Part shown: piece by piece, positions 2,688 to 60,960 of the stretch
Numbering within the stretch: position 1 is the first letter of the stretch
Layout of the letters: each line of letters starts with the position of its first letter
NCBI RefSeq assembly: GCF_963921235.1
Contig: NC_086097.1
Location: 172,362,001-172,426,000, forward strand
Source: Mobula hypostoma
Lineage: Eukaryota
Direction of reading: 5' to 3'
Length of the DNA: 64,000 nt
The notes under the pieces: model-generated
Told to the model about the DNA's origin: nothing
Database searches by the model: none
What the model saw: the letters and a program-made list of their open reading frames with translations, nothing else
Position numbers and translations under genes: made by a program

Positions 2688-3852
2688 GGTCCCACACAGG
2701 AGATTAGTGTGCAAACTTAAAGCACACGGTATTGGGGGTAAGGTATTGGTGTGGGTGGAGAATTGGTTAGCAGACAGGAAGCAAAGAGTGGGAATAAACG
2801 GGACCTTTTCAGAATGGCAGGCGGTGACTAGTGGGGTACCGCAAGGCTCAGTGCTGGGACCCCAGTTGTTTACAATATATATTAATGACTTGGATGAGGG
2901 AATTAAATGCAGCATCTCCAAGTTTGCGGATGACACAAAGCTGGGTGGCAGTGTTAGCAGTGAGGAGGATGCTAAGAGGATGCAGGGTGACTTGGATAGG
3001 TTGGGTGAGTGGGCAAACTCATGGCAGATGCAATTTAATGTGGATAAATGTGAAGTTATCCACTTTGGTGGCAAAAATAGGAAAACAGATTATTATCTGA
3101 ATGGTGGCCGATTAGGAAAAGGGGAGGTGCAACGAGACCTGGGTGTCATTATACACCAGTCATTGAAAGTGGGCATGCAGGTACAGCAGGCGGCGAAAAA
3201 GGCGAACGGTATGCTGGCATTTATAGCGAGAGGATTCAAGTACAGGAGCAGGGAGGTACTACTGCAGTTGTACAAGGCCTTGGTGAGACCACACCTGGAG
3301 TATTGTGTGCAGTTTTGGTCCCCTAATCTGAGGAAAGACATCTTTGCCATAGAGGGAGTACAAAGAAGGTTCACCAGATTGATTCCTGGGATGGCAGGTC
3401 TTTCATATGAAGAAAGACTGGATGAACTGGGCTTGTACTCGTTGGAATTTAGAAGATTGAGGGGGGATCTGATTGAAACGTATAAGATCCTAAAGGGATT
3501 GGACAGGCTAGATGCAGGAAGATTGTTCCCGATGTTGGGGAGGTCTAGAACGAGGGGTCACAGTTTGAGGATAGAGGGGAAGCCTTTTAGGACCGAGGTT
3601 AGGAAAAACTTCTTCACACAGAGAGTGGTGAATCTGTGGAATTCTCTGCCACAGCAAACTGTTGAGGCCAGTTCATTAGCTATGTTTAAAAGGAAGTTAG
3701 ATATGGCCCTTGTGGCTACAGGGGTCAGGGGGTATGGAGGGAAGGCTGGGTTCTGAGTTGGATGATCAGCCATGATCATAATAAATGGCGGTGCAGGCTC
3801 GAAGGGCCGAATGGCCTACTCCTGCACCTATTTTCTATGTTTCTATGTTTCT
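2688..3852 (+). mobile_element. Young CR1 (HER1-like) LINE, 5'-truncated
   Basis: Uninterrupted RT C-terminal frame, 3' stem-loop and (TTCTATGT)n tail; TSD ATTACA at 2682-2687 and 3853-3858. Confidence 0.95.
2689..3756 (+). CDS. CR1 ORF2 reverse transcriptase C-terminal fragment (transposon-derived, no native start)
   Basis: SGVPQGSVLGPQLF, KFADDTKL, QFNVDKC, LVRPHLEYCVQFWSP, RTRGHSL, FFTQRVVNLWNSLP. Confidence 0.85.
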   Translation, partial: VPHRRLVCKLKAHGIGGKVLVWVENWLADRKQRVGINGTFSEWQAVTSGVPQGSVLGPQLFTIYINDLDEGIKCSISKFADDTKLGGSVSSEEDAKRMQGDLDRLGEWANSWQMQFNVDKCEVIHFGGKNRKTDYYLNGGRLGKGEVQRDLGVIIHQSLKVGMQVQQAAKKANGMLAFIARGFKYRSREVLLQLYKALVRPHLEYCVQFWSPNLRKDIFAIEGVQRRFTRLIPGMAGLSYEERLDELGLYSLEFRRLRGDLIETYKILKGLDRLDAGRLFPMLGRSRTRGHSLRIEGKPFRTEVRKNFFTQRVVNLWNSLPQQTVEASSLAMFKRKLDMALVATGVRGYGGKAGF

Positions 3853-4289
3853 ATTACACTACTATGCTGCCCAATGCCGAATTTTAGTTCCCATCTATTG
3901 TGGGTTTATAATCTTCTTGCTTTAGACTTTTATGATCACATGTACCAGTAGACAAATCTGCAGTGACAGCAAAACCTGGAAAAAAATAGCTGAGGAACCA
4001 TGCCTCTGGAGTTATATAGCCCACAGAAATAGGTACTATGGCACAACTCGTATCTGCTGACCAAATGCCTTTATGAGCCAGTCCCACTTGCTTGTGCTTG
4101 GCCCACATCTCTAAACCTTTCCTATCCTGTCCAAGTGTCTTTTAAACATTTATTCACCTTTAACGCTTGCTCCTCCAGCTCATTCCACATACTGTGCCCA
4201 GCATCTTTTGTTGCCCCTCAGGTCTCTTTTAAATCCTTCCTCTCTCATTCAAACCTGTGACCTCTAGTTTTGCACTCCAGTGTAGTGGG

Positions 4290-11445: not shown

Positions 11446-12053
11446 ATGTATGTCAAGAATGTGTTGATCTACACATTTCTGGAAGTGACAGATGGAAATG
11501 TGAACAACATCATCCATGGGGTTTTTAAAAGCTCAAGTGAGCAGGTTAAGGAACTAGGTAACCCTTTACCTATGAAACTAACATTGAAAGATAGAATAGG
11601 AACTGCAGATTAGGGTGGGTGAGTTCAATGACAAATCAGATAAAGAAAAGACAAATAACACACGATAGATTCTTCAGATGCTAGAAATCTTAAGCACACA
11701 CTCAAAATACTGGAGGAATTCAGCAGATCAAGCAGTATCTATGAGGGGAAATAAACAGTCAACCTTTTGGGCCGAGATCCTTCAACAGGACTGGAAACAA
11801 AAGGGCCAAAGCCAAAATAAAAAGGGGCAGGGAGGGGAAGGAGTACAAGCTGGCAGGTCATGGTTGAGACTAGGTGAGGTGGAAGATGGGTAGGTGGGGT
11901 AGGGGATATGAAGTAAGAAGCTGGGTGTCACAACCACGGATTTAGCAGCACAGCAGATTTGGCAATTGTGCTTGTGACCATGCATGTATCAGATAATTAT
12001 TATTAATAATTATTATTTCATAGTGATCGTATTTAACTCCATTTATTCCATCG

Positions 12054-14195
12054 CACTGCCCTCCACTCTCTCCGCACTAATCCAAACCTCACCATCAAGC
12101 CTGCTGACAAAGGTGGTGCCGTAGTAGTCTGGCGGACGGACCTGTACCTTACTGAGGCCAAACAGCAGCTCTCTGACACCTCCTCTTACTTACCCCTGGA
12201 ACAGGACCCCACCAAAAAACATCAAACCATTGTCTCCAGCACAATCACCGCCCTTATCAAATCCGGAGACCTTCCATCCTCAGCCAATAAACTCATAATT
12301 CCCACACCCCGTACCGCTCGGTTTTACCTCCTCCCAAAGATACACAAGCCTGACTGTCCCAGTAGACCCATAGTTTCTGCCTGCTCCTGTCCAACCAAAC
12401 TTGTATCTCCTACCTGGACTCCATTTTGTCACCCATAGTTCAGTCCCTCCCCACCTACATCCGCGATACATCCCATGCCCTCCATCTCTTCAATAACTTC
12501 CAGTTCCCCGGTCCCAACCGCTTCATTTTTACTATGGATGTCCAATCCTTATACACCTCCATTCCCCATCAAGAAGGCCTCAAAGCCCTCTGCTACTTCC
12601 TGGATAATAGACCTCACCAGTTCCCCACCACCACTACCCTCCTCCGGTTGGCGGAACTGGTTCTCACACTTAATAACTTCTCTTTTGGCTCTTCCCACTT
12701 TCTTCAGACTAACGGTGTAGCTATGGGAACTCGCATGGGACCCAGCTACGCCTGCCTCTTCGTTGGTTATGTGGAACAGTCTGTGCTCCAAACCTATTCT
12801 AGTACTGCTCCCCAACTTTTCCTTTGATACATTGACGACTACATTGGTGCTGCTTCCTGCACCCATGCTGAACTCGTCAATTTCATCAACTTTACTTCAA
12901 ACTTCCACCCAGCCCTCAAATTCACTTGGTCTATCTCGGACACTTCTCTCCCCTTTCTCGATATCCTGGTCTCCATCTCTGGAGACAGACTGTCCACTGA
13001 CATCTTCTACAAGCCCAGTGACTCTCATAACTACCTCAACTATACCTCTTCCCACCCCGCCTCATACAAAAATGACATTCCCTATTCCCAGTTCCTCCGT
13101 CTCCGCCGCATCTGCTCCCAGGATGAGGCTTTCCGTTCCAGGACATCTCAAATGTCCTCTTTCTTTAAGGATCGTGGTTTCCCTTCTACGGTGATCAATG
13201 ATGCTCTCACCCGCATCTCCTCCATTTCCCGCACTTCGGCCCTCACCCCATCTTCCCGCCACCACAACAGGGACAGAGTTCCCCTTGTCCTCACCTACCA
13301 CCCCACCAGCCTCCGGATCCAGCACATTATCCTCTGCAACTTCCACCACCTTCAACAGGACCCCACCATTAAGCACATCTTTCCCTCTCCACCCCCCTCT
13401 GCCTTCTGCAGGGATCGATCCTCCGCGACTCACTTGTCCGCACATTCATCCCCACGGATCTCCCACCTGGCACTTATCCCTGTAAGCTTAAGTGCTACAA
13501 CTGTCCCTACACCTCCTCTCTTGCCACCATTCAGGGCCCCAAACGGTCCTTCCAGGTGAGGCAACACTTCACTTGCGAATCTGTTGGGGTCATCTATTGC
13601 ATCCGGTGCTCCCGGTGCGGCCTCCTCTACATTGATGAAACCTAACGCAGATTGGGGGACCGTTTCGTCGAGCACCTCCACTCCGTCCGCCACAACAGGC
13701 AGGATCTCCCGGTTGCCACCCACTTCAACTCTGCTTCCCATTCCCATTCAGATATGTCCATACATGGCCTCCTCTACTGCCATGATGAGGCTAAACTCAG
13801 GTTGGAGGAGCAACACCTCATATACCATCTAGGTAGTCACCAGCCCCTTGGTATGAACATAGAATTCTCCAACTTCCGGTAATTCCCTCCCCCTCCCCTC
13901 CTCTATCCCTATCTCGCATCACCTCCCTCATAGTTCCATCTCCTTCCACTATTCTTCTCCTATCAATTACCTCCCTGCTTCCCATCCCCCACCCCTTTGT
14001 CTTAAAAATTACTGTTTTTTTCAACTACCAGCATTCTTCAATCCCTCCCCAAAGTTCTTCCTTCAGTCCTGACGAAGGGTTTCGGCCTGAAACATCGACT
14101 AATCTTTTCAACTGATGCTGACTGACCTGCTGAGTTCCTCCAGCGCATTGTGAGTGTTCCTTTGACAACAGCATCTGCAGATTATTTTGTGTTTA
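12054..14195 (+). mobile_element. Penelope-like element (Neptune-type), 5'-truncated, disrupted RT + GIY-YIG
   Basis: KPADKGGAVVV, FYLLPKIHK, FTMDVQSLYTSIP, GVAMGTRMGPSYA, FL*YIDD, GVIYCIRCSRCGLLYIDET, RFVEH; TSD CCATCG at 12048-12053 and 14196-14201. Confidence 0.93.
14065..14100 (+). ncRNA. Minimal type-I hammerhead ribozyme in the PLE 3' terminus (two substitutions versus copy 2)
   Basis: AGTC-CTGACGA-AGGGTTTCGGCCT-GAAA-CATC-GACT; CUGAnGA and GAAA cores and stem I AGTC/GACT are present, but the stem III palindrome ACGT is mutated to ACAT. Confidence 0.75.
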
Positions 14196-22709: not shown

Positions 22710-24417
22710 ACATAGAAACATAGAAACATAGAAAATAGGTGCAGGAGTAGGCCATTCGGCCCTTCGAGCCTGCACCACCATTTATTATGATCATGGCTGA
22801 TCATCCAACTCAGAACCCTGTACCAGCCTTCCCTCCATACCCCCTGACCCCCGTAGCCACAAGGGCCATATCTAACTCCCTCTTAAATATAGCCAATGAA
22901 CTGGCCTCAACTGTTTCCTGTGGCAGAGAATTCCACAGATTCACCACTCTCTGTGTGAAGAAGTTTTTCCTAATCTCGGTCCTAAAAGGCTTCCCCTCTA
23001 TCTTCAAACTGTGGCCCCTCGTTCTGGACTTCCCAAACATCGGGAACAATCTTCCTGCATCTAGCCTGTCCAATCCCTTTAGGATCTTATACGTTTCAAT
23101 CAGATCCCCCCTCAATCTTCTAAATTCCAACGAGTACAAGCCCAGTTCATCCAGTCTTTCTTCATATGAAAGTCCTGCCATCCCAGGAATCAATCTGGTG
23201 AACCTTCTTTGTACTCCCTCTATGGCAAAGATGTCTTTCCTCAGATTAGGGGACCAAAACTGCACACAATACTCCAGGTGTGGTCTCACCAAGGCCTTGT
23301 ACAACTGCAGTAGTACCTCCCTGCTCCTGTACTCGAATCCTCTCGCTATAAATGCCAGCATACCATTCGCCTTTTTCACCGCCTGCTGTACCTGCATGCC
23401 CACTTTCAATGACTGGTGTATAATGACACCCAGGTCTCGTTGCACCTCCCCTTTTCCTAATTGGCCACCATTCAGATAATAATCTGTTTTCCTATTTTTG
23501 CCACCAAAGTGGATAACTTCACATTTATCCACATTAAATTGCATCTGCCATGAATTTGCCCACTCACCTAACCTATCCAAGTCACCCTGCATCCTCTTAG
23601 CATCCTCCTCACTGCTAACACTGCCACCCAGCTTCGTGTCATCCGCAAACTTGGAGATGCTGCATTTAGTTCCCTCATCCAAGTCATTAATATATATTGT
23701 AAACAACTGGGGTCCCAGCACTGAGCCTTGCGGTACCCCACTAGTCACCGCCTGCCATTCTGAAAAGGTCCCGTTTATTCCCACTCTTTGCTTCCTGTCT
23801 GCCAACCAATTCTCCACCCACACCAATACCTTACCCCCAATACCGTGTGCTTTAAGTTTGCACACTAATCTCCTGTGTGGGACCTTGTCAAAAGCCTTTT
23901 GAAAATCCAAATATACCACATCCACTGGTTCTCCCCTATCTACTCTACTAGTTACATCCTCAAAAAATTCTATGAGATTCGTCAGACATGATTTTCCTTT
24001 CACAAATCCATGCTGACTTTGTCCGATCATTTCACCGCTTTCCAAATGTGCTGTTATCACATCCTTGATAACTGACTCCAGCAGTTTCCCCACCACCGAC
24101 GTTAGGCTAACCGCTCTATAATTCCCCGGTTTCTCTCTCCCTCCTTTTTTAAAAAGTGGAGTTACATTAGCCACTCTCCAATCCTCAGGAACTAGTCCAG
24201 AATCTAACGAGTTTTGAAAAATTATCACTAATGCATCCACTATTTCTTGGGCTACTTCCTTAAGCACTCTAGGATGCAGACCATCTGGCCCTGGGGATTT
24301 ATCTGCCTTCAATCCCTTCAATTTACCTAACACCACTTCCCTACTAACATGTATTTCCCTCAGTTCCTCCATCTCACTGGACCCTCTGTCCCCTACTATT
24401 TCTGGAAGATTATTTAT
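22710..24417 (-). mobile_element. Young CR1 (HER1-like) LINE, 5'-truncated, complete RT domain
   Basis: Open frame from INNLPEIV to GGKAGTGF*; (TTCTATGT)n tail; short TSD GAA at 22707-22709 and 24418-24420. Confidence 0.95.
22810..24417 (-). CDS. CR1 ORF2 reverse transcriptase (endonuclease lost by truncation; ORF-track start at 24558 reads in from the host element)
   Basis: KSPGPDGLHP, PGNYRAVSLTS, YLDFQKAFDKVPH, GVPQGSVLGP, FADD; no stops. Confidence 0.88.
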   Translation of the reverse strand: MNNLPEIVGDRGSSEMEELREIHVSREVVLGKLKGLKADKSPGPDGLHPRVLKEVAQEIVDALVIIFQNSLDSGLVPEDWRVANVTPLFKKGGREKPGNYRAVSLTSVVGKLLESVIKDVITAHLESGEMIGQSQHGFVKGKSCLTNLIEFFEDVTSRVDRGEPVDVVYLDFQKAFDKVPHRRLVCKLKAHGIGGKVLVWVENWLADRKQRVGINGTFSEWQAVTSGVPQGSVLGPQLFTIYINDLDEGTKCSISKFADDTKLGGSVSSEEDAKRMQGDLDRLGEWANSWQMQFNVDKCEVIHFGGKNRKTDYYLNGGQLGKGEVQRDLGVIIHQSLKVGMQVQQAVKKANGMLAFIARGFEYRSREVLLQLYKALVRPHLEYCVQFWSPNLRKDIFAIEGVQRRFTRLIPGMAGLSYEERLDELGLYSLEFRRLRGDLIETYKILKGLDRLDAGRLFPMFGKSRTRGHSLKIEGKPFRTEIRKNFFTQRVVNLWNSLPQETVEASSLAIFKRELDMALVATGVRGYGGKAGTGF

Positions 24418-31930: not shown

Positions 31931-33042
31931 TTGCTCTGGCAATTCCTTTTTCTCTATTCTGCTTTCTGGGAGAAGATATAGGAGCTTGAAAGTCCAAACA
32001 ATTAGACTCAAGAAAAGCTTCTTCCCTACTTCTGAACAAATGATCTCTTTCAAAGTTCAAAGTAAATTTATTATCAAAGTTATTATCAAATTTATTGTCA
32101 CCATATGCATACAACCCTGAGATTCATTTTCTTGCAGACATTCACAGTAAATTCAAGAAACACAACGGAATCGATAGAAGACCGCATACAATATGATGGA
32201 CAAATAACCAATGGGCAAAGAACAACAAACTGTGCAAATACAAAAGGAAGAAAATAATAATAATAAAACACAAATGACCCATCAAAATATCATCCTATTA
32301 CTTGATTAAAATCTATGTATAAAATTTTAACATCGTGCATCTCGCAACTAATCACCACTCACTTAGATAACCACAATATACTTACAGAAGAGCAGAAAGG
32401 ATGCCTTAAGGGTATGAAAAGATGTAAAGAACAACTGAAAATAGATACTGTATTCTAAATCAAGCCCAAAGGAAAAGCAGAAATCTTTCATGTTGGTATA
32501 TTGACTACCAAAAGCAATTTGATTCTATCCCACACTCATTGTTAATAGAAATTCTTTATATATATAAACTAAACCCAATACTTGTGAAATTCCTTCAACA
32601 TCTGAAGAAGCTTTGGCATATTATGATCACCCTAACTATTAACAAACAAAAAAGAACAACCACTGTTCTCAAAATAAATCGAGGCACTTTCCAGGGCGAC
32701 TCTCTAAGCCCACTATGGTTTTGTCTAGTTTTAAATCCACTCTCTAATTTAATGAATCAGATGAAAATTGGGTATCAAATCAGAAACAACCAAAAAAATT
32801 ATAGCTTGACACACGTTCTATACATGGACAATTTGAAATTATACCATCCTTCATCAGTGAAACTATAGCAATTAATTCAAATAGTAGAACTATTTTCTCA
32901 AAATATAAACATGAACTTTGGATTAGATAAGAGCACAACATTAAACATAAAGAAAGGTGCAATAGAGCTAGTAGAATATAAAACAGAGCAGCAGAATACA
33001 ATATAACCGATGGATGAATATGAAACTCATAAGTATTTGGGA

Positions 33043-33768
33043 TAGAAACATAGAAACATAGAAAATAGGTGCAGGAGTAGGCCATTCGGCCCTTCGAGCC
33101 TGCACCGCCATTTATTATGATCATGGCTGATCATCCAACTCAGAACCCAGCCTTCCCTCCATACCCCCTGACCCCTGTAGCCACAAGGGCCATATCTAAC
33201 TCCCTCTTAAACATAGCCAATGAACTGGCCTCAACAGTTTGCTGTGGCAGAGAATTCCACAGATTCACCACTCTCTGTGTGAAGAAGTTTTTCCTAATCT
33301 CGGTCCTAAAAGGCTTCCCCTCTATCCTCAAACTGTGACCCCTCGTTCTGGACCTCCCCAACATCGGGAACAATCTTCCCGCATCTAGCCTGTCCAATCC
33401 CTTTAGGATCTTATACGTTTCAATCAGATCCCCCCTCAATCTTCTAAATTCCAACGAGTACAAGCCCAGTTCATCCAGTCTTTCTTCATATGAAAGACCT
33501 GCCATCCCAGGAATCAATCTGGTGAACCTTCTTTGTACTCCCTCTATGGCAAAGATGTCTTTCCTCAGATTAGGGGACCAAAACTGCACACAATACTCCA
33601 GGTGTGGTCTCACCAAGGCCTTGTACAACTGCAGTAGTACCTCCCTGCTCCTGTACTCGAATCCTCTCGCTATAAATGCCAGCATACCGTTCGCCTTTTT
33701 CACCGCCTGCTGTACCTGCATGCCCACTTTCAATGACTGGTGTATAATGACACCCAGGTCTCGTTGCA
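33043..33768 (-). mobile_element. Young CR1 3' fragment (same subfamily as 2688-3852)
   Basis: Near-identical to 3128-3852; open frame QRDLG..GGKAGF*; (TTCTATGT)n tail. Confidence 0.95.
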
Positions 33769-42829: not shown

Positions 42830-43370
42830 AATCATCTCTGTTACATGCCTCACCATCACCTTCTCCTCTTTATGTGAGCCATGTTACCTCTTCACTCTTA
42901 TTCTGATGCAGGGTTTCAACCCAAAGCATCGACAGTTCCTTTCCTTCCACAGATGCTGCTCGGTCTGTTGAGTTCATCCAGCCGTTTGTTTGTTGCTTTA
43001 GATTCAGAAAGATGGCATCCATTATTCAGGACCCCATCAGCTAGGACATTATTACTGTAAAGATTTAGATACAGAAGGCACACACTCAACAATTCAGGAT
43101 CAGCTTCTTCCCCTCTGCCATCCAATGTTAAAATGGACATTGAACCCATGAACACTACCTCACTTTTTTAATACTTCTGTTTTTGCACTACTATTTTTAA
43201 ATTTAACTGCTTAATATACATATATATATTTTTACTGTAATTCTTTTGTTTACATTTAGCATAAATTACATTGTACTGCTGCTACTAAGTTAACAAATTT
43301 TACGACATATGCCAGTGGTATTAAATCTGATTCTGATTCCGATTTCAACATCTGCAGTCTCTTGTGACTC
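42830..43370 (+). mobile_element. PLE-derived terminal element with decayed hammerhead, split by a Rex 3' fragment (~43007-43340)
   Basis: CTGATGC-A-GGGTT-TC-AACCC-AAAG-CATC-GAC, CAGATGCTG..TGTTGAGTTCATCCAGC; resumes CAACATCTGCAGTCTC. Confidence 0.65.
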
Positions 43371-46503: not shown

Positions 46504-49500
46504 TCATATTCTATAAAAAAACCCTGTACCCCTTAAAAACGCTAAAAATACCCGGACTTGTGCTCTCTCACCCATGCCCAGCAACCCTTTTAATGTGAAT
46601 TCCTGCATCCCCAATTCCCTTAATTTATTTCTCATCGTCTCTCTCTGTATCCCATACTTCCTGCAACTCAGAACTACATGTTCTACTGACTCCTCTTCCT
46701 GACATTCCTCACACAATCCTGTCTGGTGTTTCCCTATCATTTTTAATGTTTTGTTTAATGCACAATGCCCCAGCCTTAACCTAGTCCACACAATTTCCTC
46801 TCTTCTGTTTCCATTACCTACCCTAGTAACTGCAACACTCTTTTGTATTTGATATAAATGCCTCCCTTTCCCCTCCCTGTCCCATCTTTCTTGTCACATT
46901 CGGTTGACTTTTTCCCAGATTACACACTTAACCTCTGCTTTACTAATACTAATGTGCATTTCCACATTTTCTTTCTTTAACGCCCTCTTTGCCAACTCAT
47001 CCACCCTCTCATTCCCCTTCACCCCTACATGTGCTGGAACCCATAGAAATTTTATCTGACCTCCCTGATTTGCAATTCTTGTAACTAACTGAAGGACTTC
47101 ATAAAGTACATCTTGCCAACTGTTTGTGTGAAAAGAACTTAAACTTGCTAGAACTGAAGATGAATCGGAACATATCAATGCTTTGGCTTGTCTGGCTTTC
47201 TGCACCCATTGCAAAGCAACCAACACTGCCAGCATCTCCACTGTAAACACCCCTAACTTATTAGATGTTCTTCTGCTGATTCCAATTTCTTTTGCTGGTA
47301 TTACCACCCCAAACCCTGTCACTCCTGTTTCAGGTTCCTTCGCACCATCCATATAAATGTGAGTATAATCACTATACTTTTCCATCACATGACAGTTAAA
47401 TGCATTTACCAAATCTGTTTTATATCTTTCTTTCCTTTTTACCTCTAACAAATGCCAGTCTATGTCAGGCCATACAAGCTTCCATGGAGCTACAACCGGA
47501 TAAACTACTGAAGGACTTATCCTCAGATCAAACACTCCACATTCTTTCGCGATATCATTCCCTACCCGACTAAAGGTATCCCTCTGAAACCTCCCATTTT
47601 CCCAGCACTCCTGCAACACTCCTTTAGCAGGGTGAGAATCATTGTGCCCCTGCAAGTTAGCCCAGTAGTTTGCCATCAGTTGCATCCTTCTTAGATCCAA
47701 AGGCATTATTCCCATTTCTACCTGTAGTGCTGACACTGGTGACGTTTTAAAAGCCCCACTGCACACTCTCAAGGCCTGAGCCTGAATCACATCCAGTTTC
47801 CTTATAAGAGACCTAGATGCTGATCCATATACTATATTTCCATAATCCAATACAGATCTTACTAAAGCCACATACATTCTCTTCAAAGCTGAACAACTTG
47901 CTCCCCATTCCCTACCAGTCAAACATCTAATCACATTTATTACTTTTTTACATTTCTCCTCAACTTTCCTGATATGGTCTGCCCATGTTAATCGTGAATC
48001 AAATATAACTCCCAGAAATTTAAATGATGCAACCCTTTCTAATTCAACCCCATACATCCTTAACTTCCTCCCTACCTCAACCCTTTTCCTGGTAAAAAAT
48101 ACAGTTTGAGTTTTATCTACTGAAAATCTACATCCCCAATCATAACCCCATTCCACCACTTCATCAATTGCTTCTTGTAGTTTCCTGATTATACGGTCCA
48201 TGTGCCTGCCTATTTTCCACAAGGCCCCATCATCTGCAAACAGTGACCTACCTATATCCACTGGTACCTTTGTGAAGACATCATTGATCATAATGATGAA
48301 AAGTAATGGGCTAATCACACTACCTTGAGGTGTGCCATTTTCCACTACGTACTGTTTTGATAATTCTGATCCAATCCGAACTTGAATTTTTCTACCAAAC
48401 AAAAAATCTTTAATCCAATTAAAAACTCTCCCACCAACCCCCATCTTGTGCAGTTTAATTAATAATCCTTCCTTCCACATCATATCATAGGCTTTTTCAA
48501 CGTCAAAGAACACTGCCACTACTGACTCTCTATTTGCCTGGGCCTTCCTTATTTCAGTCTCTAACATAATTACTGAGTCCATGGAATTCCTTCCCTTTCT
48601 AAAACCACTCTGATAACTTGCCAGCATTCCCCTTTTCTCAAGCTCATATGATAACCTTTCTGTTATCATCCTTTCCATTATCTTAATGCAATGATGTTAA
48701 TGCAATTGGTCTGTAGCTAGTGGGTTTTGACAGATCCTTGCCAGGCTTCCTTATTGGAATTACTACTGCTTCTTTCCATGCACTTGGTAATCTTCCCTCC
48801 TCCCACACTCTGTTATAAAAATGCAGCAACTTCAAGAGCGCTCCTTCTCCTAGATTTTTTAGCATCACAGAGCATATCAGATCTTTCCCTGGGGAGGTTG
48901 GTCTCGATCTCTTTATTGCTCTCACCATTTCTGCTAATGTAAATGGATCATCAATTATATCATCTGTTCCTTCCCTCCTGCTTAACACACCTGGGTGTTG
49001 GCTCATTATTCTTTCCCTTCTTCTTCTCCCTCCTTCAGACAAATTTTCTGAACTGTGTATCAGTACAAATGACTTGGCCATGACCTCAGCCTTATCCCTA
49101 CTGGAGACTGCAGTTTCCTCCTCAGGTATCATTACTGGATATTCCCATTCCCTTCTATCTCCTCCCATACTCTTAATCATTCCCCATATCTCTCCCACAG
49201 GTGTTGTTCTTCCTACCTTGTCGCAAAAACTCCTCCAACTTGCCCTTTTAGCTTGACATATAGTTCTTCTCACCCCTGCCTGTGCTTTCTTATATTGAAC
49301 CAAATGCTGCATATTATGGGTTCTTTTAACTAGCCTGAATGCTCTATTTCTGTTTTTTACAGCCTGACAACGTTCCTCTGTCCACCATGGTACCAGTTTT
49401 CTATTCATCCTATTTTTACTCCTAGGTATAGATCCTTCTGCTGCCATGATAATTGCTGAAGTCACCTGACTGTTTAATTCATCTACATTTCCAGAAATAT

Positions 49501-49540
49501 CAATCTTTGTCAACCCTTCTTCACTCAATTTCTGGAACTT
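46504..49540 (-). pseudogene. LINE ORF2 (RT-RNase H-zinc knuckle) with one frameshift (~48680) and one in-frame TGA (46894-46896)
   Basis: ORFs 46894..48678 and 46504..46791 share a frame separated by a single stop (NRM*QERWD); 48683..49657 is frameshifted at ALTS. Confidence 0.85.
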
Positions 49541-49744
49541 ACCCTGCCTACTGTTTATACATATCAATTCTTTATACTGTACAGTGTATTGAGGTAGAAC
49601 AAGGTAAAACAATAATAGAATGCATGTGTAGCAGCTATAGAGAAAGTACAGTGGCAATAAAGTACAAGATCATAATGAAGTAGATTGTGAGATCAAGAGT
49701 ACTATACCAATATGGTGGTTCACATGGACATTCTGCGCTGAAGG

Positions 49745-50170
49745 GCGTCGCTGGAGCTTAGAGGAATAAAGGAGGATCTCATTGAAATCTACCAAATATA
49801 GAAAGGCCTAAATAGAATGAATGTGGACAGGATGGTTCCAATAGTAGAAAGGACTAGATCCAGAAAGCACAGCCACAGAATAGAAGGATGTTTCATCAGA
49901 GCAGAGATAAGGATCAATTTATTTAACAAGAGGGTGGTGAATTTATGAAACTCATTGCCAGAGATAGCTGTGGAAGCCAAGCCATTGGGCATACTTAAAG
50001 CAGAGGTTGATTGGTTTTTGATTAGTAAGGGTGTAAAAGATTATGGGGAGAAGGCAGGAGAATGGGACTGAGAAGGAAAGTAAATCAGCCATGTTCAAAT
50101 GGTGGACCAGACTCAATGGGCCAAATAGCCTCATTTTGCTCCTACATCTTTTGGTTTTATGGTTTTTCTG
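49745..50170 (+). mobile_element. Old CR1 3' fragment
   Basis: GDLIEIYQI, KRVVNL..LPE, 3' stem-loop and TTTTATGG-type tail. Confidence 0.75.
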
Positions 50171-50422
50171 ATTCTTTGATTTTATATCTCTAAAATGTAA
50201 CTTCACAGTACTTGAGTAGGTTAGACATCTAAGTAGTTTTTGACGTCTTTCTTTAAAATGTTGATCATCTGAGCAAAATAATATATAGTAGTTTTCTGTC
50301 CTTTAGTAATTTATGATCTGGGTAATAATAATTACATTGACTTAAACATAAGAACACTAAAATAAGATCAGTAGTAGGCTCTTAATCCTGCTACATCTAA
50401 CGGGATCAGAGGTGACCCAGTA

Positions 50423-50598
50423 TGTTGTGTCTGTACAACTACATATCAATTAAAATAATGCATGCACACAACGGTGAAGTTAACTGATGTATTCACTTTG
50501 CAGAGAGAGAACAGATCAATGTGCATGGGTAAGTTATCAGTCAATAAGTAGTGCTAAGGGGAGTCATTGCGCTAAAAGAAATAGATTCATACATTGCA
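50423..50598 (-). repeat. Gypsy 3' LTR (176 bp)
   Basis: TG...CA termini next to the polypurine tract; 50525-50598 matches 54774-54847. Confidence 0.85.
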
Positions 50599-52149
50599 CT
50601 TCCTCCCCCTTTAGATTAACGTAATAACAAACTGTATATGTAACAAAACATTCAATTCCCCTTTAGCAAACCATATTCATATAAAAATACATTCACAATA
50701 ACAATGCTCAACGAACTTCACATTTCTGAAGATTCAGTCCTTTCAGTGGTGCTCTGTTTCTTTGAGGATAGCACCGCTGAACCTATGGAGTGGCATCAGG
50801 TTTGGAAGATATCTTGGCAATGAGAACATTCTCTTTGCACCTCTGGACCTGTGGAGCGGAATCAGGTTTGGCAGATGTCTTGGTAAAGTCAACTTTCTCT
50901 GTTGCAGATGCCATGTTGCTGTTAGTGATATGATCATTACTGTGAGGTGATTTTAGTGTCTGTAATGTGTCCGTCTTGTTGGACGCAATTGACTCAGGTG
51001 TTTCCTTTGGTTGGGCATGGTCCACATGACATCTCCATGTCTGATCTCCAACATCCACTGTGTACATCAGTGGTCCAGTTCTTGTAGCTACCCTACCAGG
51101 TGTCCATTTGTCTTCTTGGTAATCATACACCAGGACTTCCTGTCCAACCTCAAAGTTCCTTGCTGATTTGCTTGGCAACAGGCTGAACTGTTTATTCTGC
51201 CCTTCCCTTCGTAAACTTTCTTTCAGGAGGTTTATGCGAGATCTCAGATTCTTATGAAAAGCATTGCAGGTGTTTGATTTCTCGTCGTATGAACAGAGTT
51301 CCAATATACAAAAAGGAAGTTGTCCACCTTATGCTGTAGAGAAATGTCCTCCTTGTCCATAGTTTTAAAGGACTTCTTGAAGGTTTGGACAAACCTTTCA
51401 GCTAACCCCTTCGTTGCTGGGTGGTGAGGAGCTCACTTGAAATGTTTGATGCCCTTTTTCTTCATGAACAGTCAGAGTTCTTCTGACTTGTGTCGTGGTC
51501 TGTTATCACTCACAATTTGTTCAGGCAAACCATTTCTGGTGTAGATAGTCCTTAGCGCAGAGAGAGTCTTTGCTGAGGTGGTTGACTTCATTGGTATAAC
51601 CTCCAGCCACTTCAAAAGAGCATCCACAGCAATCAGAAATATGGAGTCCAAAAATGGCCCAGCAAAGTCAATAGGTACTCTTTGCCATGGTGATAGCAGC
51701 CACTGCCACGGGTGTAACAGTGCCTGTGGGGGTGCATTTTGAACTTTGTGGCATCCTGAACAACTTTTGGTCAGGTCTTCATTCTGTCTATCTATTCCAG
51801 GCTACTGCACGTAGCTCCGGGTGAGACTCTTCATCTTGACTGTACCCAGGTGTCCTTCATGCAGGATTTCTAACACTCTGGTGTTCAGTTTAGAAGGAAC
51901 CACAACATGAGATCCACACATCAGATTTCTTTGACATACAGAATGTTGGTCTCGACTCACAGAGAACCCTAGAAACATAGGATTACCATGAGCTGGCCAT
52001 CCTTGCATGGTGATGTCATAGACTTTTGCCAATGCTTCTCTTTGTATTTCAGAATTTGTTACCAGCAACTGGTCCACCAATACTGTGTGGAACACCTCTG
52101 CTGTGTCACAGAATGAAGACTTTTCTTCTTCAATCCAATGAAGCACAAT

Positions 52150-53790
52150 TGGATGTCCAATCCTTATACACTTCCATTCCCCATCAAGAAGGCCTCAAAG
52201 CCCTCCGCTACTTCCTGGATAATAGACCTCACCAGTTCCCCACCACCACTACCCTCCTCCGGTTGGCGGAACTGGTTCTCACACTTAATAACTTCTCTTT
52301 TGGCTCTTCCCACTTTCTTCAGACTAAGGGTGTAGCTATGGGAACTCACATGGGACCCAGCTATGCATGCCTTTTCATTGGTTATGTGGAACAGTCTGTG
52401 CTCCAAACCTATTCTGGTACTGCTCCCCAACTTTTCCTTCGATATATTGACGACTACATTGGTGCTGCTTCCTGCACCCATGCTGAGCTCGTCAATTTCA
52501 TCGACTTTACCTCAAACTTCCACCCAGCCCTCAAATTCACTTGGTCTATCTCTGACACCTCTCGCCCCTTTTTCGATGTCTCGGTCTCCATCTCTGGAGA
52601 CAGACTGTCCACTGACATCTTCTACAAGCCCACTGACTCTCATAACTACCTCGACTATACCTCTTCCCACCCCGCCACATGTAAAAATGCCATTCCCTAT
52701 TCCCAGTTCCTTCGTCTCCGCCACAGCTGCTCCCAGGATGAGGCTTTCCGTTCCAGGATATCTCAAATGTCCTCTTTCTTTAAGGATCGTGGTTTCCCTT
52801 CTGCAGTGATCAATGACGCCCTCACCCGCATCTCCTCCATTTCCCGCACTTCGGCCCTCACCCCATCTTCCCGCCACCACAACAGGGACAGAGTTCCCCT
52901 TGTCCTCACCTACCACCCCACCAGCCTTTAGATTCGGCACATTATCCTCCGCAACTTCCGCCACCTTCAACAGGACCCCACCACTAAGCACATCTTTCCC
53001 TCTCCACCCCCTTCTGCCTTCCGCACAGATTGGTCCCTCCGCGACTCACTTATTCTCACGTCCATCCCCACGGATCTCCCGCCCGGCACTTATCCCTGTA
53101 AGCGTAAGTGCTACACCTGTCCCTACACCTCCTCTCTTGCCACCACTCAGGGCCCCAAACAGTCCTTCCAGGTGAGGCAACATTTCATTTGCGAATCTGT
53201 TGGGGTCATCTATTGCATCCGGTGCTCCCGGTGTGGCCTCCTCTACATGGATGAAACCCGACGCAGATTGGGGGACCGCTTCGTCGAGCACCTCCACTCC
53301 GTCCGCCACAACAAACAGGATATCCCGGTAGCCATCCACTTCAACTCTGCTTCCCATTCCCATTCAGATATGTCCATACATGGCCTCCTCTACTGCCATG
53401 ATGAGGCTAAACTCATATACCGTCTAGGTAGTCACCGGCCCCTTGGTATGAACATAGAATCCTCCAACGTCCAGTAATTCCCTCCACCTCCCTTCCTCTA
53501 TCCCTATTTCGCATCACCTCCTTCATAGTTCTGCCTCCTTCCACTATTCTTCTCCTACCAATCACCTCCCTGCTTCCCCTCCCCCACACCTTTGTCATAA
53601 AAATTACTGGTTTTTTTCAACTACCAGCATTCTTCAAACCCTCCCCAAAGTTCTTCCTTCAGTCCTGACGAAGGGTTTCGGCCCGAAACGTCGACTAATC
53701 TTTTCAACTGATGCTGACTGACCTGCTGAGTTCCTCCAGTGCATTGTGAGTGTTCCTTTGACAACAGCATCTGCAGATTATTTTGTGTTT
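52150..53790 (+). mobile_element. Penelope-like element (Neptune-type), copy 2, 5'-truncated
   Basis: DVQSLYTSIP, GVAMGTHMGPSYA, FLRYIDD, CKRKCYTC linker, GVIYCIRCSRCGLLYMDET; TSD ACTTTTCTTCTTC at 52119-52131 and 53791-53803. Confidence 0.93.
53661..53696 (+). ncRNA. Intact minimal type-I hammerhead ribozyme (dimer-dependent type)
   Basis: AGTC / CTGACGA / A-GGGT-TTCG-GCCC / GAAA / CG / TC / GACT; predicted GUC cleavage after 53692. Confidence 0.85.
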
Positions 53791-54773
53791 ACTTTTCTTC
53801 TTCTGTTGCCAGCGGTGGAAATGTGACAAGCATCAGTGCGGCTGTGTTGTTTGGTACCCTTGAACTCTATGTCATAAGTGCTTACATTGCAACCATGTAG
53901 CAGACATCACTGGGATTGTCTTCCTGGGATTCGAAATGGACACAAGGAGCTGGTGCCCTGTCAGTAGAGTAAACTTTTGTCCTTAGAGGTAGTGCTAGAA
54001 CTTCTTTATTCCTCATACTAGACTAAGACCTTCTCCATCGATCTGTACGTAGTTGCATTCTGTGCTCGTCAGTGATCTTGAAGTAAATGCAATCAGGCAT
54101 TCAGATCCATCTTTTCTAGTGTGTGACAAAACAGCACCAATACCATAAGGGGGCACATCACATGCCACTCTGATGGGCAGAGATGGTTCATAATGGGTTA
54201 GCGATTCATTGGATGTAATTAGTCTCTTTGTTTCCTTGAATGCTCTTTCACATCTTTCTGACCATTCCTTCTTTGCTCTTGTGTTCAATGGATGCAGCAC
54301 TGTAGCAATGTTTGGGAGAAACTGGTGGTGTTAGTTTACAAGGCCAAAGTATGACCTGAGTTGTGACACATTTTCTGGTTTGGGTTACTGAAGCACTGCT
54401 TCATTCTTCTCTTGTGACTTATCTAAGCCATGCTTGTCAATGACATGTCCACAATATGAGATTCCATTCTTGAAAACTCATATTTGTCTCTCTTTGTGCA
54501 CAGACCATTCTCACTCAGCCTGATGAGGTGTTCTTCATCATTCTTGCTATTTACAATTTGGCAGCATTGTGATCCTGAGATGTCTTTGAGCACTTGGTCC
54601 ATTGCCCTTTGCCAAATTGCTGGAACTGATACAAGCCAAAGACGAGACAATTATACCTGAACAGTTCCTTGTAAGTTTGATTGTGGGGAAATTCCTGCTT
54701 GATTCTTCAATCTCCATTTGAAGATAGGCTTGTGACAAGTCAACCTTTGAAAACCTCTCCCCGCCTACCAAAG

Positions 54774-54847
54774 ATGGGTAAGTTATCGGTCAATATGTAG
54801 TGCTAAGGGAAGTCACTGTGCTAAAAGAAATAGATCCATACGTTATA
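54774..54847 (-). repeat. Remnant of the Gypsy 5' LTR (first 74 bp)
   Basis: 65/74 identity by eye to 50525-50598; followed by TSD CAGTA. Confidence 0.85.
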
Positions 54848-54899
54848 CAGTAATTAATCATTTTTCTCATGATGGATGAGAAAATGGATGAATTACCAT

Positions 54900-56010
54900 T
54901 CAAATATGCCCTCTTTTCATTAGTAGCATTAGAGAGCAGGTACAGGAGCTTGAAGACCTATACTCAATGATTCAAGAGCAGTTTTTTCCTTTCCATTACC
55001 GGATTTCTGAATGGTTGATGAATCTATGAATACTACCTCAATATTCTTTTTTGCTCGATTTATTTATTTTGTAATGAATAGTAATTTTATTTCTTCACTC
55101 TATACTGCTGCTGTAAAACAAAAAAAATCACAACTTGTAAGGCAGTGATATTAAACATTGTTCTGATTTTGATTCTGATTCAACCCCCTCCGCCTTAATT
55201 ATACTCAATGTTGAAATATTTCCGTATCTCCTTCCTAGACGTGCAAATCTTATCCAAAGATCCTGTTTCTTGAAATTCTGGACTTGCCAGTCAGATGAAA
55301 AAGCCCCTGAATATCCACATCTGACCTTGTGTTTCTCAGTGAGATCAGCTTTCATCATACCAGACAAAAGGGAGTAACATGTGAAATGCTACGGTGAAGG
55401 ACTGGAGGATAGAGATTAATTGGATGGCTGGTTTCCATATCTAGATGAAACAGTTCCCTCTTTATTAGAAAAATAAATGGCCTTAAAATTCCATTGTACC
55501 CTTCAGGATGATATAGTCATGATGGGACAATAACCGAAATCCATGCACAAATTTAGAATTTAGAATCAGTTGTTAGAATCGGATTTAGGATATAAGGTTT
55601 GTTATCTCTGATATATGATATAAAATCTGTTGATTTGTGGCAATAATACAGTGCAAAGACAAAAAAATTGCTATAAGTTTACAAAAAAAAGTGTAAAAGT
55701 TGCAAAAGGAACAACAAGGCAGTGTTCATTGGTTTATGGACCATTCAGAATTCTTATGATTGAGGGAAAGGAGCTATTTCTGAATCATTGAGTACAGATC
55801 TTCAGGCTCCTATACCTTCTCCCTAATGACAGTAAGAAAAAGAGGGCGTGACTCGAACAGTGAGGGTTCTTAATGATGGACGCCGCCTTCTTGTGGCACT
55901 GCCTCTTGAACATGTCCTCAATAGTGGGGAGGGTTGTCCTGTGATGGAGCTGGCTGAGTCTTCGATTCTCTGAAGCCTTTTGTGATCCTACGCATTGGAG
56001 CCTCCATACC
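54900..56010. mobile_element. Two old Rex-type 3' fragments (+ ~54900-55180; - ~55560-56010)
   Basis: RYRSLKT..FK.SFF motif and (CTGATT)n tails in both orientations. Confidence 0.7.
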
Positions 56011-56699
56011 AGTTAACCTTGAGTAACAACCCCATAACCTTTAGTCAAATGAATTAATAAGAAATGTGAATCTTCCAGACTATGATGTCTCTTATAGTCA
56101 GTACTCCATCAACACTGTACTGGAGTGCTGGTATTCTTAGTATTCACCTCTGCAGAATGGTAAATGCACATTTAGAGATGTGAAAAAATCTCTAATATGC
56201 GTTCTTCTGAACAAGGCAGGTCATCCTAATGAAGGAAGTCACCCCGCTGTAGAAGAGATTGTAGTCTGATTTAAGCAATAGAGTTGATCAAAAGACAATG
56301 AGCAAGCAATTTATCTTCAGTGGACTGCATTAACGTGCTGTGTATGGTGAAACAGCCTTCAGTTCTCTCTGCTTCTGAATTTCAGTTTCATTGAAGTCAA
56401 TGGAATCAAATTTCTGAGGCAGAGCTCAGTGTTCTATTATGAGAGCTCTATCATGTGTGCAGCACATATAACGTAGGACATTCACGCCAGTATGATTTAA
56501 CCCACTAAACATAACATGATGTACAATTTTACAATTGTTTAACATTGCAGAGAATCTGATAGAAGTTAGAGGATGCAGAAATTTGTTGCAGCTGTCAGAT
56601 TTAAGGATTTGGAACCTGCCATCAGTCACTGAGCTATTAACCTTTCTGGCTGTCAGAGGATCAGAAAAGAAGAATGTAACGCCAAATGAGAAAATCAGA

Positions 56700-56985
56700 A
56701 TGGCACAATGGCGCAGTTAATCAAACTCCTGTCTCAGAGATCCAGCGACCTGTATCCAATCCAGTGCTGCCTATGTGGAGTTTCTGCTTTTTCCCAGAAA
56801 CTACATGAACACAACCCGAAGGATTGGTAGGGTAATCAGCGTTTGTAAATTGACTCTCATATGTAGCTGAATGGTGGAGGTTGAGAGAGATGATGGTAAT
56901 GTAGATAGGATAAAATGGGATGGGTGCCTGATGATTTATGTGGACTTGGTGAGTGGTAGGACCTGTTTCTATTTTGTATGACTCC
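56700..56985 (+). mobile_element. Degenerate V-SINE-like element
   Basis: TGGCGCAG A-box-like start, TGTGGAGTTT, TGTAAATTG, CR1-like 3' end GGACCTGTTTCTATTTTGTATGACTC. Confidence 0.55.
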
Positions 56986-57569
56986 AAGCTCTTTGATATT
57001 CAGCCCTGTATTCCCATAACACAAGGGAAATAATTGCTATGTAATATGCTTGCAGATTTTGGGAAGATATTGAGTTAATGCATCCTTGTCCATTTCTGAA
57101 GAATTCAGCAAGGACTTTCCACCAACATTCAGGTTGATCTAATCAGCATCTATAAGCACAGTACAACACTGTGGACTAGATCTCATGGTCATACTCAAGA
57201 ATGAGTAACACATAACTACCCAAACACATAATCTCCCCCACTAGTCACCCAGTCTATCTGCAAACACTTGTTCTTATATTCTAGACTGTTGGAAAGCAAT
57301 CTAATTCTTCATTGACCAACTGCCCTGAACTTGTCTGATTGGCCATCTTTGCTAGTGTCGTTCCCACAGTAAGTAAAAAGAGTTATTTGAAGAAACTAAA
57401 AAAGAAAGCACAGTATATTTTTAGAGGTTGAATGGTCTACACACGCTGTTCCTTCTGGCAACAATATCTTTTGTAGTAACATATTGAAGATCATCTGAAA
57501 GACCAAGGACACAGCTTCTCCATTTCCTCTCTCTCTAGTTACAGTATTAATTGCATAGCATTGGGACTG

Positions 57570-58028
57570 CGTGTGCAACGATGACAGGAAACCTGTGCAG
57601 GAGATCTTCTAAGGTGCAAATTCCTCCATCTCAACCTCAGAGTCCAGGTCCAGTGGTACAAACAGGCATCATAAACTGGATCCCAGTTTGCAATGGATAA
57701 CCATAACGTCTTCTGCACCTTCATGTCCCTTGCTCTGCATGAAGCGTTGCAGTACTACCTTCCTGGCAGTTGGTTATCACTGTAGATCTGATCCATCCAG
57801 TCTGCTGGAGATAACTTCCCATGCTAGGGCAAGCACATTCCTATCTCACCAGGGTACGAGTACGCCAGCTACTTCCCCGTGTGTGCTAAGGAGGGGCAGC
57901 TGCTGCTGGAGACATAGGTGAGAGCTGAGTGTCTGGTGGGGTCCAAGGGTAAGTGAGCTGCCCCGGAATGGACACAACCAGCTCCTTCACCAGAAGTGTT
58001 GCCCCTCCCTGGTCACCTCATATACCCC
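57570..58028 (-). mobile_element. Probable RTE-derived non-autonomous element
   Basis: Minus strand has RTE 5'-UTR-like GGTGAAGGAGCT and an ORF-end-like W-M-D-Q-I (TGGATGGATCAGATC); no RT. Confidence 0.45.
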
Positions 58029-59739
58029 AATGGTTGATTAACAGGTAGTCTAAAAGAATTGAAGCATTACCGATGAACAACGAAGAAGACAGAAACAAAG
58101 CAATGTCCAATACAGACATTCCACATTTTCACCAGTCTCTGCTGGTGAAGTTTTATTGAATTCCTTACTGGAGTACAGAAGCCTGAACAAACCATGTACA
58201 AGAACAATTACTTCCCTTCAGATCTTAAATCAACCAACACAGCCCTAATCAGTACCTCTGTAAACAACATAACAACCACTTTGACCACGTTGCACTATAA
58301 TGGACTTCGTTATTTTAATATAATTTCTGTTAATTTATGGTTTTCTTTTGAATTCTGCTGATGATGCTATTTGTCTGTGAGGCTGCTATGAGTACAATTT
58401 CTGCATACAAATGCATGTGCATATTACAATAAGCTCTTGGACTTGTGACTTTGGATTTATTGATTTTTATATAACATCATTGTGTGTTAACTTTGAACTA
58501 CAGTACCCGAGGTAACACACCCAACAGATCAAGCATACAGCCAGGTCAATCCTGGTCAATATTTATTCCTCAAACCTATGCAGCTAAGACGTTTACCTGG
58601 TCACAGCTGTCATATGGAATCTTGCTGTGTACAAATTTGCTGCTGCATTTCTACAACACAGCAGAAGTCACATTCCAAAAATGCTTCATTGACTTCAAAG
58701 AACTTGGGAGAATACCCTAAGACAACAAAAAATGCAACACAGCAGCAATTTATGGTTCTAATGCCCGTGGGAATATACAGTGGGCCAGTCACAATGTTTG
58801 TCAGACGGAATGTTGGTGGGTGAAATGCGGCTGACAGACTCCCTCCCAATGCTTCTCTCCTTCACACTCCCCTCTCCTAGATTGTCTTGAAACAAACAGA
58901 CATACAAATTAGGAACAGAATATTCTGGACTTATCCCATGAGCCTGTTCTGATATTTAAATAATATCGTAGCTGATCTGATTGTAACCTCAATTCTGCAT
59001 TCTAGTAACCATTCACTCCTTTGCTTTTCAGAAAGCTATCTTCCCTCTGCCTTAGAAATATTCAAAGACTGTTTCAACACCCTTTGAGGAAGAGAGTTCT
59101 CAAGATATACAGTATAAGCCTCAGGGAGTGAAAAAAAAATCATCTGATGTCACTTAAATGAGCGATCCCTTACTTTAAAACAATGACTGTACTTACAGAA
59201 TGAATTTTGGATTTTCAGTCCAAAGTTTTAAAAATTGTAGAGACACGAGACTGCAGATTGTTGAATCTGGAACCAAAAATCAAACCACTTATTAAGTCCT
59301 GACATGGGGTCTCAACTTGAACCATTGAACATCCTTTACACCCAACAATGCTATCTGACTCCCTGAGTTACTCTAGAATTTTATCTTTCATTCAAAAGTT
59401 GTGTGTTGGACAATTGTGCGAAATATAAACCATCTTGTAATATGTTCTGTTTATTGCCTCCATTAAAAATTAATTTGGCAAAGTGTTAAATGACTGACTT
59501 GCAGACTCAACAACAGATTAGCTTAATGTGGTCATATATTTGATTTGGCTCCAGTGTGTCCATCAGTTTAATTACCTGTGTGCTGGTTAGTCAGGAGGTG
59601 GAAAGATTATTCTTTGAACGTTCTTTAAAGGAATTTTACCTGAATAAACAGAATATAATGTAATCCGGTGTTTTCATTAAATATAAATGGTAATGGGATA
59701 TAGGTGAAATTTTTTTTATTATTATTATTATTATCCCAA

Positions 59740-60960
59740 GGTTATCCTTCAGCCCAAGACGTCTGTGCTGTTCATGAATCTAAATTAAACTGAAACTGTC
59801 TGCATTCACATGGTCTATATCCCTCTATTTCCTGCATGTACTTTTGCCTCTCTCCCCTCACGTTCCAACAGTCTGGAGAAAATAATCAAAGACTGCCCAA
59901 CCTCTCTTTTCTGCTCATACCCTTTAATCCAGGCAGCATCCTAGTAAACCTTTTCTGCACCTTATCCATTGCCTCCACATCCTTCTTGTATAATAGGGTA
60001 ACTAGAAGAGCACACAATAGTCCAAGTGTGGCCTTACAAAACCTTAGAAGAATCTTACCTTTGATAAGATCTGCTCTTATATTTCGAAACTCTAAAGAAC
60101 AACCTCACCCTATTCATTTTTCCTCATATGAAATGAGTGGGGAGGAAGGGATGTTTCCAGGAGTGGGAGAGTCTAGGACCAGAAAGCACAGCATCAGAAT
60201 AAAAGCCTACCACTTTTGAGGAAGAAGTTCTTTATCCAGAGGGTGGTGAATCTGTGGAATTCATTGCCACGTTCAGCTGCGTAAGTGCAAATTGTTGGGT
60301 ATATTTAAAGTGGAGGTTGATTGGTTCCTTGACGAGTAAAGGTGTCAAAGGTTATGGGGAGAAGGTGAGAGAATGGGGCTGTCAGCCATGGCAGAGTTGG
60401 CTCACTAGGCTGAATGACCTAATTCTGCACCCATGTCTTACGGTCTTACAGAACATAGACCAGTACAGCACAGTACAAACCCTTCAGCCCATGATGTTTT
60501 GCTAACCTTTAACCTACTGCAAGATCAATCTAACCCTTCCCTCCCACAGAACCCTTCATTTTGCTTTGATCTGTGTGCCAATATAAGAGCCTCTTAAATA
60601 TTCCTAATGTATCTGCCTCTACCACCACCTCATGTTTCACGCACCCACCAGTTTCTGTGTAAGCAATTTACATCTGACATCCCCTCATTACTTTCCTCCA
60701 ATCACCATAAAATCAAGTCCTCTTGTATTAGCCTTTTCCACCTCGAGAGAAAGTCACTGGTTGTCCATTCCATTAATGCCACTTAACATCTTGTACACCT
60801 CTATCAAGTCACCCCTCACTCTCTTTTACTCTAAAGAGAAAAGCCTTAGCTCACTCGACCTATCCTTAGAAGGCATATTTTCTAATCCAGGCATCAGCCT
60901 GGTAAATCTCCTCTGCATCCTCCCTAAGGCTTCCAAATCCTTCTTATAATGAGTTGACTG
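59740..60960. mobile_element. Cluster of old CR1 3' fragments in both orientations
   Basis: FPGVGESRTRKHS, QRVVNLWNSLP on +; reverse-complement CR1 motifs at 59740-60030 and 60450-60960. Confidence 0.75.

Follow-up and report, generated by a model that had tools for sequence, protein, structure and literature searches.

Minimal hammerhead ribozymes (min-HHRs) have been described in metazoan Penelope-like elements (PLEs), where they are located in the pseudo-LTR (pLTR) (Cervera and De la Pena 2014, PMC4209133). The published consensus, NNN CUGANGAH G...C GAAAN-palindrome-NUH NNN, includes an extra nucleotide that is the hallmark of the min-HHR. The one min-HHR tested in that study was inactive as a monomer and displayed low activity as a dimer, and in its Table S1 5′-truncated PLEs with a single 3′ HHR were the usual case. 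Dimer cleavage was also treated by Lunse et al. 2017, as summarised in the review PMC6765202. In the Poseidon element of Anolis carolinensis (Frangieh et al. 2024, PMC11167929), hammerhead cleavage in vitro required the protein of the element, the hammerhead was dispensable for insertion in vitro, and an internal start of reverse transcription defined the tail. Type-I HHRs also occur in non-LTR retrozymes of one chondrichthyan genome (bioRxiv 10.64898/2026.07.22.740005). A published Penelope hammerhead family from a ray or shark was not found in the open literature covered, and supplement file 2 of PMC4209133 gave no matches for shark, Callorhinchus, skate or Leucoraja. The word 'shark' in one Penelope/hammerhead paper denotes the shape of a motif.

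Here, the window, which is the whole 64-kb stretch of Mobula hypostoma DNA that was analysed, was found to hold one intact motif of this kind, made up as follows.

53661-53696, + strand: minimal type-I hammerhead motif with all core positions intact (sequence, shuffles, independent covariance model)
53661-53664, + strand: stem I 5′ strand AGUC, partner of GACU at 53693-53696
53665-53672, + strand: core CUGACGA (53665-53671) and an extra A (53672) between positions 9 and 10.1
53673-53684, + strand: stem-loop II GGGU-UUCG-GCCC, 4 bp, with closing pair G10.1-C11.1 (G53673-C53684)
53685-53692, + strand: GAA (53685-53687), self-complementary ACGU (53688-53691) and C17 (53692)
53693-53696, + strand: stem I 3′ strand GACU

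The predicted cut site lies 3′ of C53692, which is where established hammerhead chemistry places the cut. All the motif elements named in the first-pass annotation were found in place, as was its predicted scissile bond after 53692, but its description had left out the unpaired A53672 and had counted A53688 in both 'GAAA' and 'ACGU'. The core CUGANGA...GAAA...UH, the extra nucleotide, the G10.1-C11.1 pair and the palindrome at 15.1-16.1 make every defining sequence feature of the PLE min-HHR present at 53661-53696, with cleavage itself as a prediction; by its letters this is an undamaged PLE-type minimal type-I hammerhead motif. It does not form the canonical (Rfam-type) hammerhead with helix III in cis.

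A relaxed pattern matched once in the 64-kb window and not at all in 100 shuffles, and a descriptor that checks the stems gave one window match against none in 30 shuffles. The fold z-score of the motif was only −0.96. The first-pass annotation had looked to covariance models for confirmation. Rfam, searched over 48000-60000 at E<=10, returned three unrelated weak matches, none of them to a hammerhead family, a silence that would be expected because the motif is devoid of helix III. An independent model, built on 16 motifs from related elements elsewhere and on none of the window sequence, gave 53661-53696 a score of 43.3 bits, with a rough E-value of 9.7e-9.

Compared with the published min-HHRs (PMC4209133), the motif fits the consensus and is likewise of type I with a short helix I and no helix III. 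It has the same CUGACGAA, 4-bp helix II and GAAACGUC as the motif of the Acropora digitifera Neptune element in the same paper. It differs in its stem letters, as all families do from each other, and in its host, which is a cartilaginous fish. The non-LTR retrozymes of the bioRxiv report (10.64898/2026.07.22.740005) resemble it in carrying a type-I HHR derived from PLE pLTRs, but they are tandem non-coding units, whereas here a single intact motif in 64 kb is attached to an ORF remnant.

The motif sits in a copy of a Penelope-like element that spans 52150-53790 on the + strand and has lost its 5′ end by a break inside the reverse transcriptase (RT). The ORF remnant, the protein matches and the element boundaries agree with the earlier placement of the hammerhead at the 3′ end of such an element. 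The copy and its insertion site are composed as follows.

52119-52131, no strand: target-site duplication, left copy, perfect 13 bp
52132-52149, no strand: 18-nt filler at the 5′ junction, with no match of more than 10 nt elsewhere in the window
52150-53477, + strand: broken RT and GIY-YIG ORF remnant, fitting a Neptune-type PLE (Pfam, protein matches, translation)
53478-53660, + strand: pyrimidine-rich 3′ non-coding part of the pseudo-LTR, subfamily-specific, 5′ of the ribozyme
53693-53790, + strand: 98-nt tail between the predicted cut site and the element 3′ end, with a predicted stem-loop
53791-53803, no strand: target-site duplication, right copy, of which the first two bases may instead belong to the element end
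53804-54789, − strand: decayed LTR-retrotransposon pol (RNase H and RT pieces), the insertion target

The closest named protein relatives of the ORF were from Hypanus sabinus (84% identity) and the sharks Rhincodon (73%) and Chiloscyllium (71%), followed at about 50-60% by unnamed and marine-invertebrate proteins; these matches by themselves make a ray the likely host. Its RT part matched RVT_1 with E 3.4e-6 and 27.3 bits, under the cut-off of 29.6. The C-terminal piece had no Pfam match, but it shares 40% identity (E 6e-36) with the C-terminal end of the protein P0049, which carries PF01541 (GIY-YIG). The translation contains CKRKCYTC, a CX3CxxC linker that fits the CX2-5CxxC definition of the RT-EN linker, and the Neptune/Nematis-type arrangement of RT followed by a C-terminal GIY-YIG in one ORF is present in a frame that is broken here. 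By ORF layout and linker the element would fit the Neptune/Nematis-type EN+ PLEs. Likenesses to the PLEs of that type in PMC8557442 (Craig et al. 2021) are the RT with a C-terminal GIY-YIG-type region and CX2-5CxxC linker, the CxxC and two His of the CCHH motif, the HHR in a terminal repeat and the tail, whereas the copy here is truncated and broken, has a tail of 98 nt and has no inverted or tandem partner attached.

An in-frame stop at 52929-52931, a 21-nt deletion after 53415 and a YIG motif that reads YMD are the lesions of the ORF; as it reads, the copy 52150-53790 cannot make a working protein, and the upstream terminal repeat is absent. The hammerhead is located about 185 nt past the ORF stop codon at 53475-53477. 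By analogy with the Anolis element (PMC11167929), the 98-nt tail likely holds the start of reverse transcription. To the right of the insertion, the LTR-retrotransposon relic gave an RT_RNaseH_2 match (E 1.6e-21) at 54013-54330, and it resumes left of the element at about 51472-52118, where integrase-like pieces were recognised by eye without a Pfam match; the relic is presumably Gypsy-type. The filler at 52132-52149 makes a 6-bp inverted repeat with the first bases of the element.

Conservation of the motif was followed in 86 related loci. The descriptor found 27 motifs in 22 of these loci, against 0-1 per shuffle in 10 shuffles. The extra nucleotide between 9 and 10.1 was present in 26 of the 27 matches, and the palindrome was ACGT in 22 and another one in the remaining 5. 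In 15 aligned motifs 95.3% of the cells pair, 8 of the 10 pairs change on both sides and the 10.1-11.1 pair is G-C throughout (15/15), covariation counts that are partly circular because these motifs were picked by a descriptor demanding the stems. A count at the ORF ends was not selected on stems; it required at least 450 nt downstream and left out 8 loci with short flanks and 35 of the 86 with no matched ORF end. A strict core in sense orientation was found within 450 nt past 23 of 43 related ORF ends (25 of 45 with the window copies included) and on the opposite strand in one of 45 regions, while 20 of the 43 related ends had none within that distance. The 23 strict cores comprised 16 of the extra-A type, 6 without the extra A and 1 that is probably spurious, and in the 16 related elements the extra-A motif sits 92-209 nt after the ORF end. 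Core and stems are thus conserved in the related elements, on which the first-pass annotation had staked its identification of a PLE minimal type-I hammerhead with a palindrome in place of stem III, and that identification stands.

One full-length relative (L006) has a 964-aa ORF flanked by two identical hammerheads, which belong to a 201-nt direct repeat and are separated by 3066 nt. These hammerheads are at 1024-1061 and 4090-4127, and the first in-frame ATG (1057-1059) starts at hammerhead position 17, so that cleavage would split it after the A. This clean two-hammerhead element would be a better object for cis-dimer tests than 53661-53696. In locus L021 the motif is identical to the min-HHR that Fig. 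S3 of PMC4209133 gives for the Acropora Neptune element. Upstream in L001, L021, L036 and L083 a further hammerhead was seen on the other strand, the inverted 5′ partner that PLE insertions typically have. In one 'bacterium' assembly, five contigs (L081-L085) contain Penelope-like elements, at least two of them with hammerheads, and are likely eukaryotic host contamination.

The motif had been called a lone copy. It is the sole intact one in 64 kb, but three further, damaged modules were detected in the window, and contigs of the family are abundant.

12050-14194 (left edge approximate), + strand: sister copy of the same subfamily, also broken, 94.3% identity over 1639 columns
14065-14100, + strand: sister hammerhead with G10.1-C11.1 changed to G-U and ACGU to ACAU (two CpG-type changes), 33.6 bits
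11757-11792, − strand: decayed hammerhead and tail module of a related subfamily, 72.5% over 153 nt, E 1e-12; 14.9 bits, E 0.2
42899-42934, + strand: heavily decayed hammerhead and tail module, E 0.008; 12.1 bits, E 1.1 (weak)

The sister copy is located 39.6 kb upstream, and 34 of the 93 differences between the two copies are CpG-type. Both copies share the 3′ end position (53790 and 14194), 98 nt beyond the cut site. A convincing target-site duplication was not found for the sister copy, the best candidates being 6-7 nt. In both copies Asp replaces the Gly of the endonuclease YIG motif (53245-53255 and 13630-13640); since it is common to both, the change may predate both insertions, as would be the case for a defective master mobilised in trans.

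At 80% likeness, 53330-53830 matched 20,416 and 26,541 contigs in two public DNA runs and 3,190 and 2,191 contigs in two public runs guessed to be RNA. RNA ends at the cut site were not among the features listed for these runs, whose contigs are unable to show such ends. Contig depth had its maximum over the ribozyme and tail and was roughly 10- to 100-fold lower over 53478-53660. The change C53684T (C11.1 to U) made up 21-47% of the summed depth in four runs, and among the variants listed (40 of 84), a share too small to give a consensus, the motif varies only at C53684T and T53696C. From the contig counts and the share of C11.1 to U, the family is very abundant and decays at CpG sites. Among the motifs of the window the usual life history is displayed, from intact over two CpG hits to heavily decayed. 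The neutral chance of all 36 bases being unchanged was estimated at about 0.12 from the two copies of the window, assuming that 53661-53696 equals the ancestor, and one intact motif among four in the window therefore needs no selection. A 30-nt tail pattern gave no stretches in metagenome contigs, and none of 19 candidates in a viral collection was related. Single contigs of run X5 had joints from the tail back to the ribozyme start (a 134-nt unit, 53661-53794, and shorter ones), hinting that a related genome may elsewhere contain this module in tandem, retrozyme-like arrays.

The palindrome ACGU cannot build helix III within one strand, and therefore a second copy must supply it. In the folding model of the 36-mer monomer, GACG of the core pairs with CGUC with a probability of 0.98-1.0. 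The active dimer came to −14.7 kcal/mol, compared with −23.8 for two self-folded monomers and −28.7 for the best dimer fold, i.e. 9 and 14 kcal/mol above these, in energies that ignore tertiary core contacts. Within 326- and 600-nt contexts stems I and II form with a modelled probability of about 0.05. The same self-pairing trap is present in 5 of 16 natural relatives; given this and the omitted tertiary contacts, the folding results make activity less likely and fall short of proving inertness. The sister copy 39.6 kb upstream was rejected as partner in a cis-dimer by reason of a C-A mismatch in helix III. All 416 ORFs of at least 55 aa in the window were without a host protein domain in Pfam, giving retroelement-type matches only, in a scan that would miss short exons and non-coding RNAs, and a long intron or ncRNA over the locus is possible.

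The first-pass annotation had held that the copy could cleave only in trans with another transcript, and that any host RNA reading through would carry a latent cleavage site. The former is not supported by the published cases, in which the Anolis hammerhead needed the protein of its element for cleavage (PMC11167929) and the tested min-HHR dimer was weakly active (PMC4209133). The latter is not supported either, given the lack of a host domain in the 416 ORFs and folding models that disfavour the active dimer.

Observed directly are the sequence, the architecture, the duplication, the broken ORF, the sister copies and the conservation across families. The intact hammerhead in this truncated and broken PLE is very probably a passive passenger, a chance survivor with little or no cleavage at the locus. 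By analogy with the described elements, the history of the copy may be depicted as follows. In the active parent element each of the terminal repeats on either side of the ORF would have carried a hammerhead, and the cut after GUC would have occurred only when helix III was formed from the paired ACGU palindromes of two copies, probably aided by the element's own protein as published relatives suggest. Reverse transcription likely started some 98 nt downstream of the cut site, with RNA uncut at the hammerhead as template, would have halted early inside the RT, and integration would have produced the 13-bp duplication. The template RNAs were likely uncut at the hammerhead because both copies continue for 98 nt beyond the cleavage position; the shared 3′ end would also be in keeping with a circular or multimeric template. 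The inactivity at the locus, the activity of the family motif, the cleavage chemistry, the dimer mode and the uncut template are inferred. In the Anolis Poseidon element (PMC11167929) a hammerhead is likewise located 5′ of a fixed 3′ end, with insertion from uncut RNA into an AT-rich target; that element belongs to another PLE clade, and its cleavage and start of reverse transcription were measured, whereas here they are deduced.

A different reading concerns what the motif does for the family, which might keep it as a structural or protein-binding signal, or harbour it as a parasite, any cleavage needing the element protein. The Anolis hammerhead was cleaved only with protein, and its mutants left insertion unchanged (PMC11167929), PLE clades that lack canonical HHRs multiply successfully and HHRs are possibly parasites of PLEs (PMC8557442), and both window copies likely derive from uncut templates. 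However, the catalytic letters do not vary even between distant relatives, whose stems covary, a pattern consistent with selection on catalysis, and we consider this reading possible but rather unlikely. As it addresses the function of the family, it is compatible with a passively surviving motif at the locus.

Far less probable is that 53661-53696 is a working half-ribozyme, which cleaves read-through host RNA at 53692 by trans pairing with a family transcript. All 36 positions are intact, an active dimer with fully Watson-Crick stems I and III can be drawn, and the 3,190 and 2,191 contigs in the RNA-guess runs suggest that partners may exist in this abundant family. Such activity is nevertheless opposed by the missing host domains, by the energy of the active dimer above monomers and best dimer with the stems at about 0.05 in context, and by the C-A mismatch in helix III with the nearest same-strand partner. 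Published min-HHR dimers are moreover poor cleavers even in cis (PMC4209133), and the Anolis element yielded no reads that end at its cut site (PMC11167929).

Still more doubtful is an extension of this idea to a genome-wide, retroelement-triggered network in cartilaginous fish, with 53661-53696 as one node, in which the very many intact half-ribozymes seeded by the family would cause read-through host RNAs to be cut in vivo at the GUC via another family transcript or the element protein. That the motif is a chance look-alike, as the weak fold z-score (−0.96) and the missing Rfam hammerhead match might suggest, carries practically no weight given the empty shuffles, and it was ruled out by the E-value of about 1e-8 from the independent covariance model and by the conserved placement after the ORF in related elements.

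With the motif taken as a passive survivor, the locus adds a further example of an already described motif, carried by a dead element, and matters little, and for the in-vivo role of PLE hammerheads 53661-53696 is no more informative than any other copy. Proof that host RNAs are cleaved in trans or with the help of the protein would change this. The published list of min-HHRs likely gains a ray subfamily.

Possible intron signals were noticed around the 3′ non-coding part. A pyrimidine tract reaches into stem I with its terminal CAG (53660-53662), and at 53474 a GT shares sequence with the stop codon; in the Penelope element of Drosophila virilis an intron end overlaps hammerhead stem I in a similar way (PMC4209133). 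Among the joints listed (15 of 16) none was a GT..AG joint, in a region where the cover by RNA-guess contigs is thin, and most related motifs are without a YAG at the stem I position. Splicing across 53474-53662 is not supported. In the Hypanus gene model P0002 the protein continues beyond the corresponding stop into unrelated residues, as might be expected if this GT donor were used.

Other repeats were also present in the window. Three copies with 97-99% identity, at 2687-3854, 22712-23885 and 33042-33768, represent a young RT-bearing repeat. A long non-LTR retrotransposon remnant on the − strand (46504-49669) has a 600-aa frame with RVT_1 (E 4.9e-30) and a C-terminal RNase_H (E 2.2e-14).
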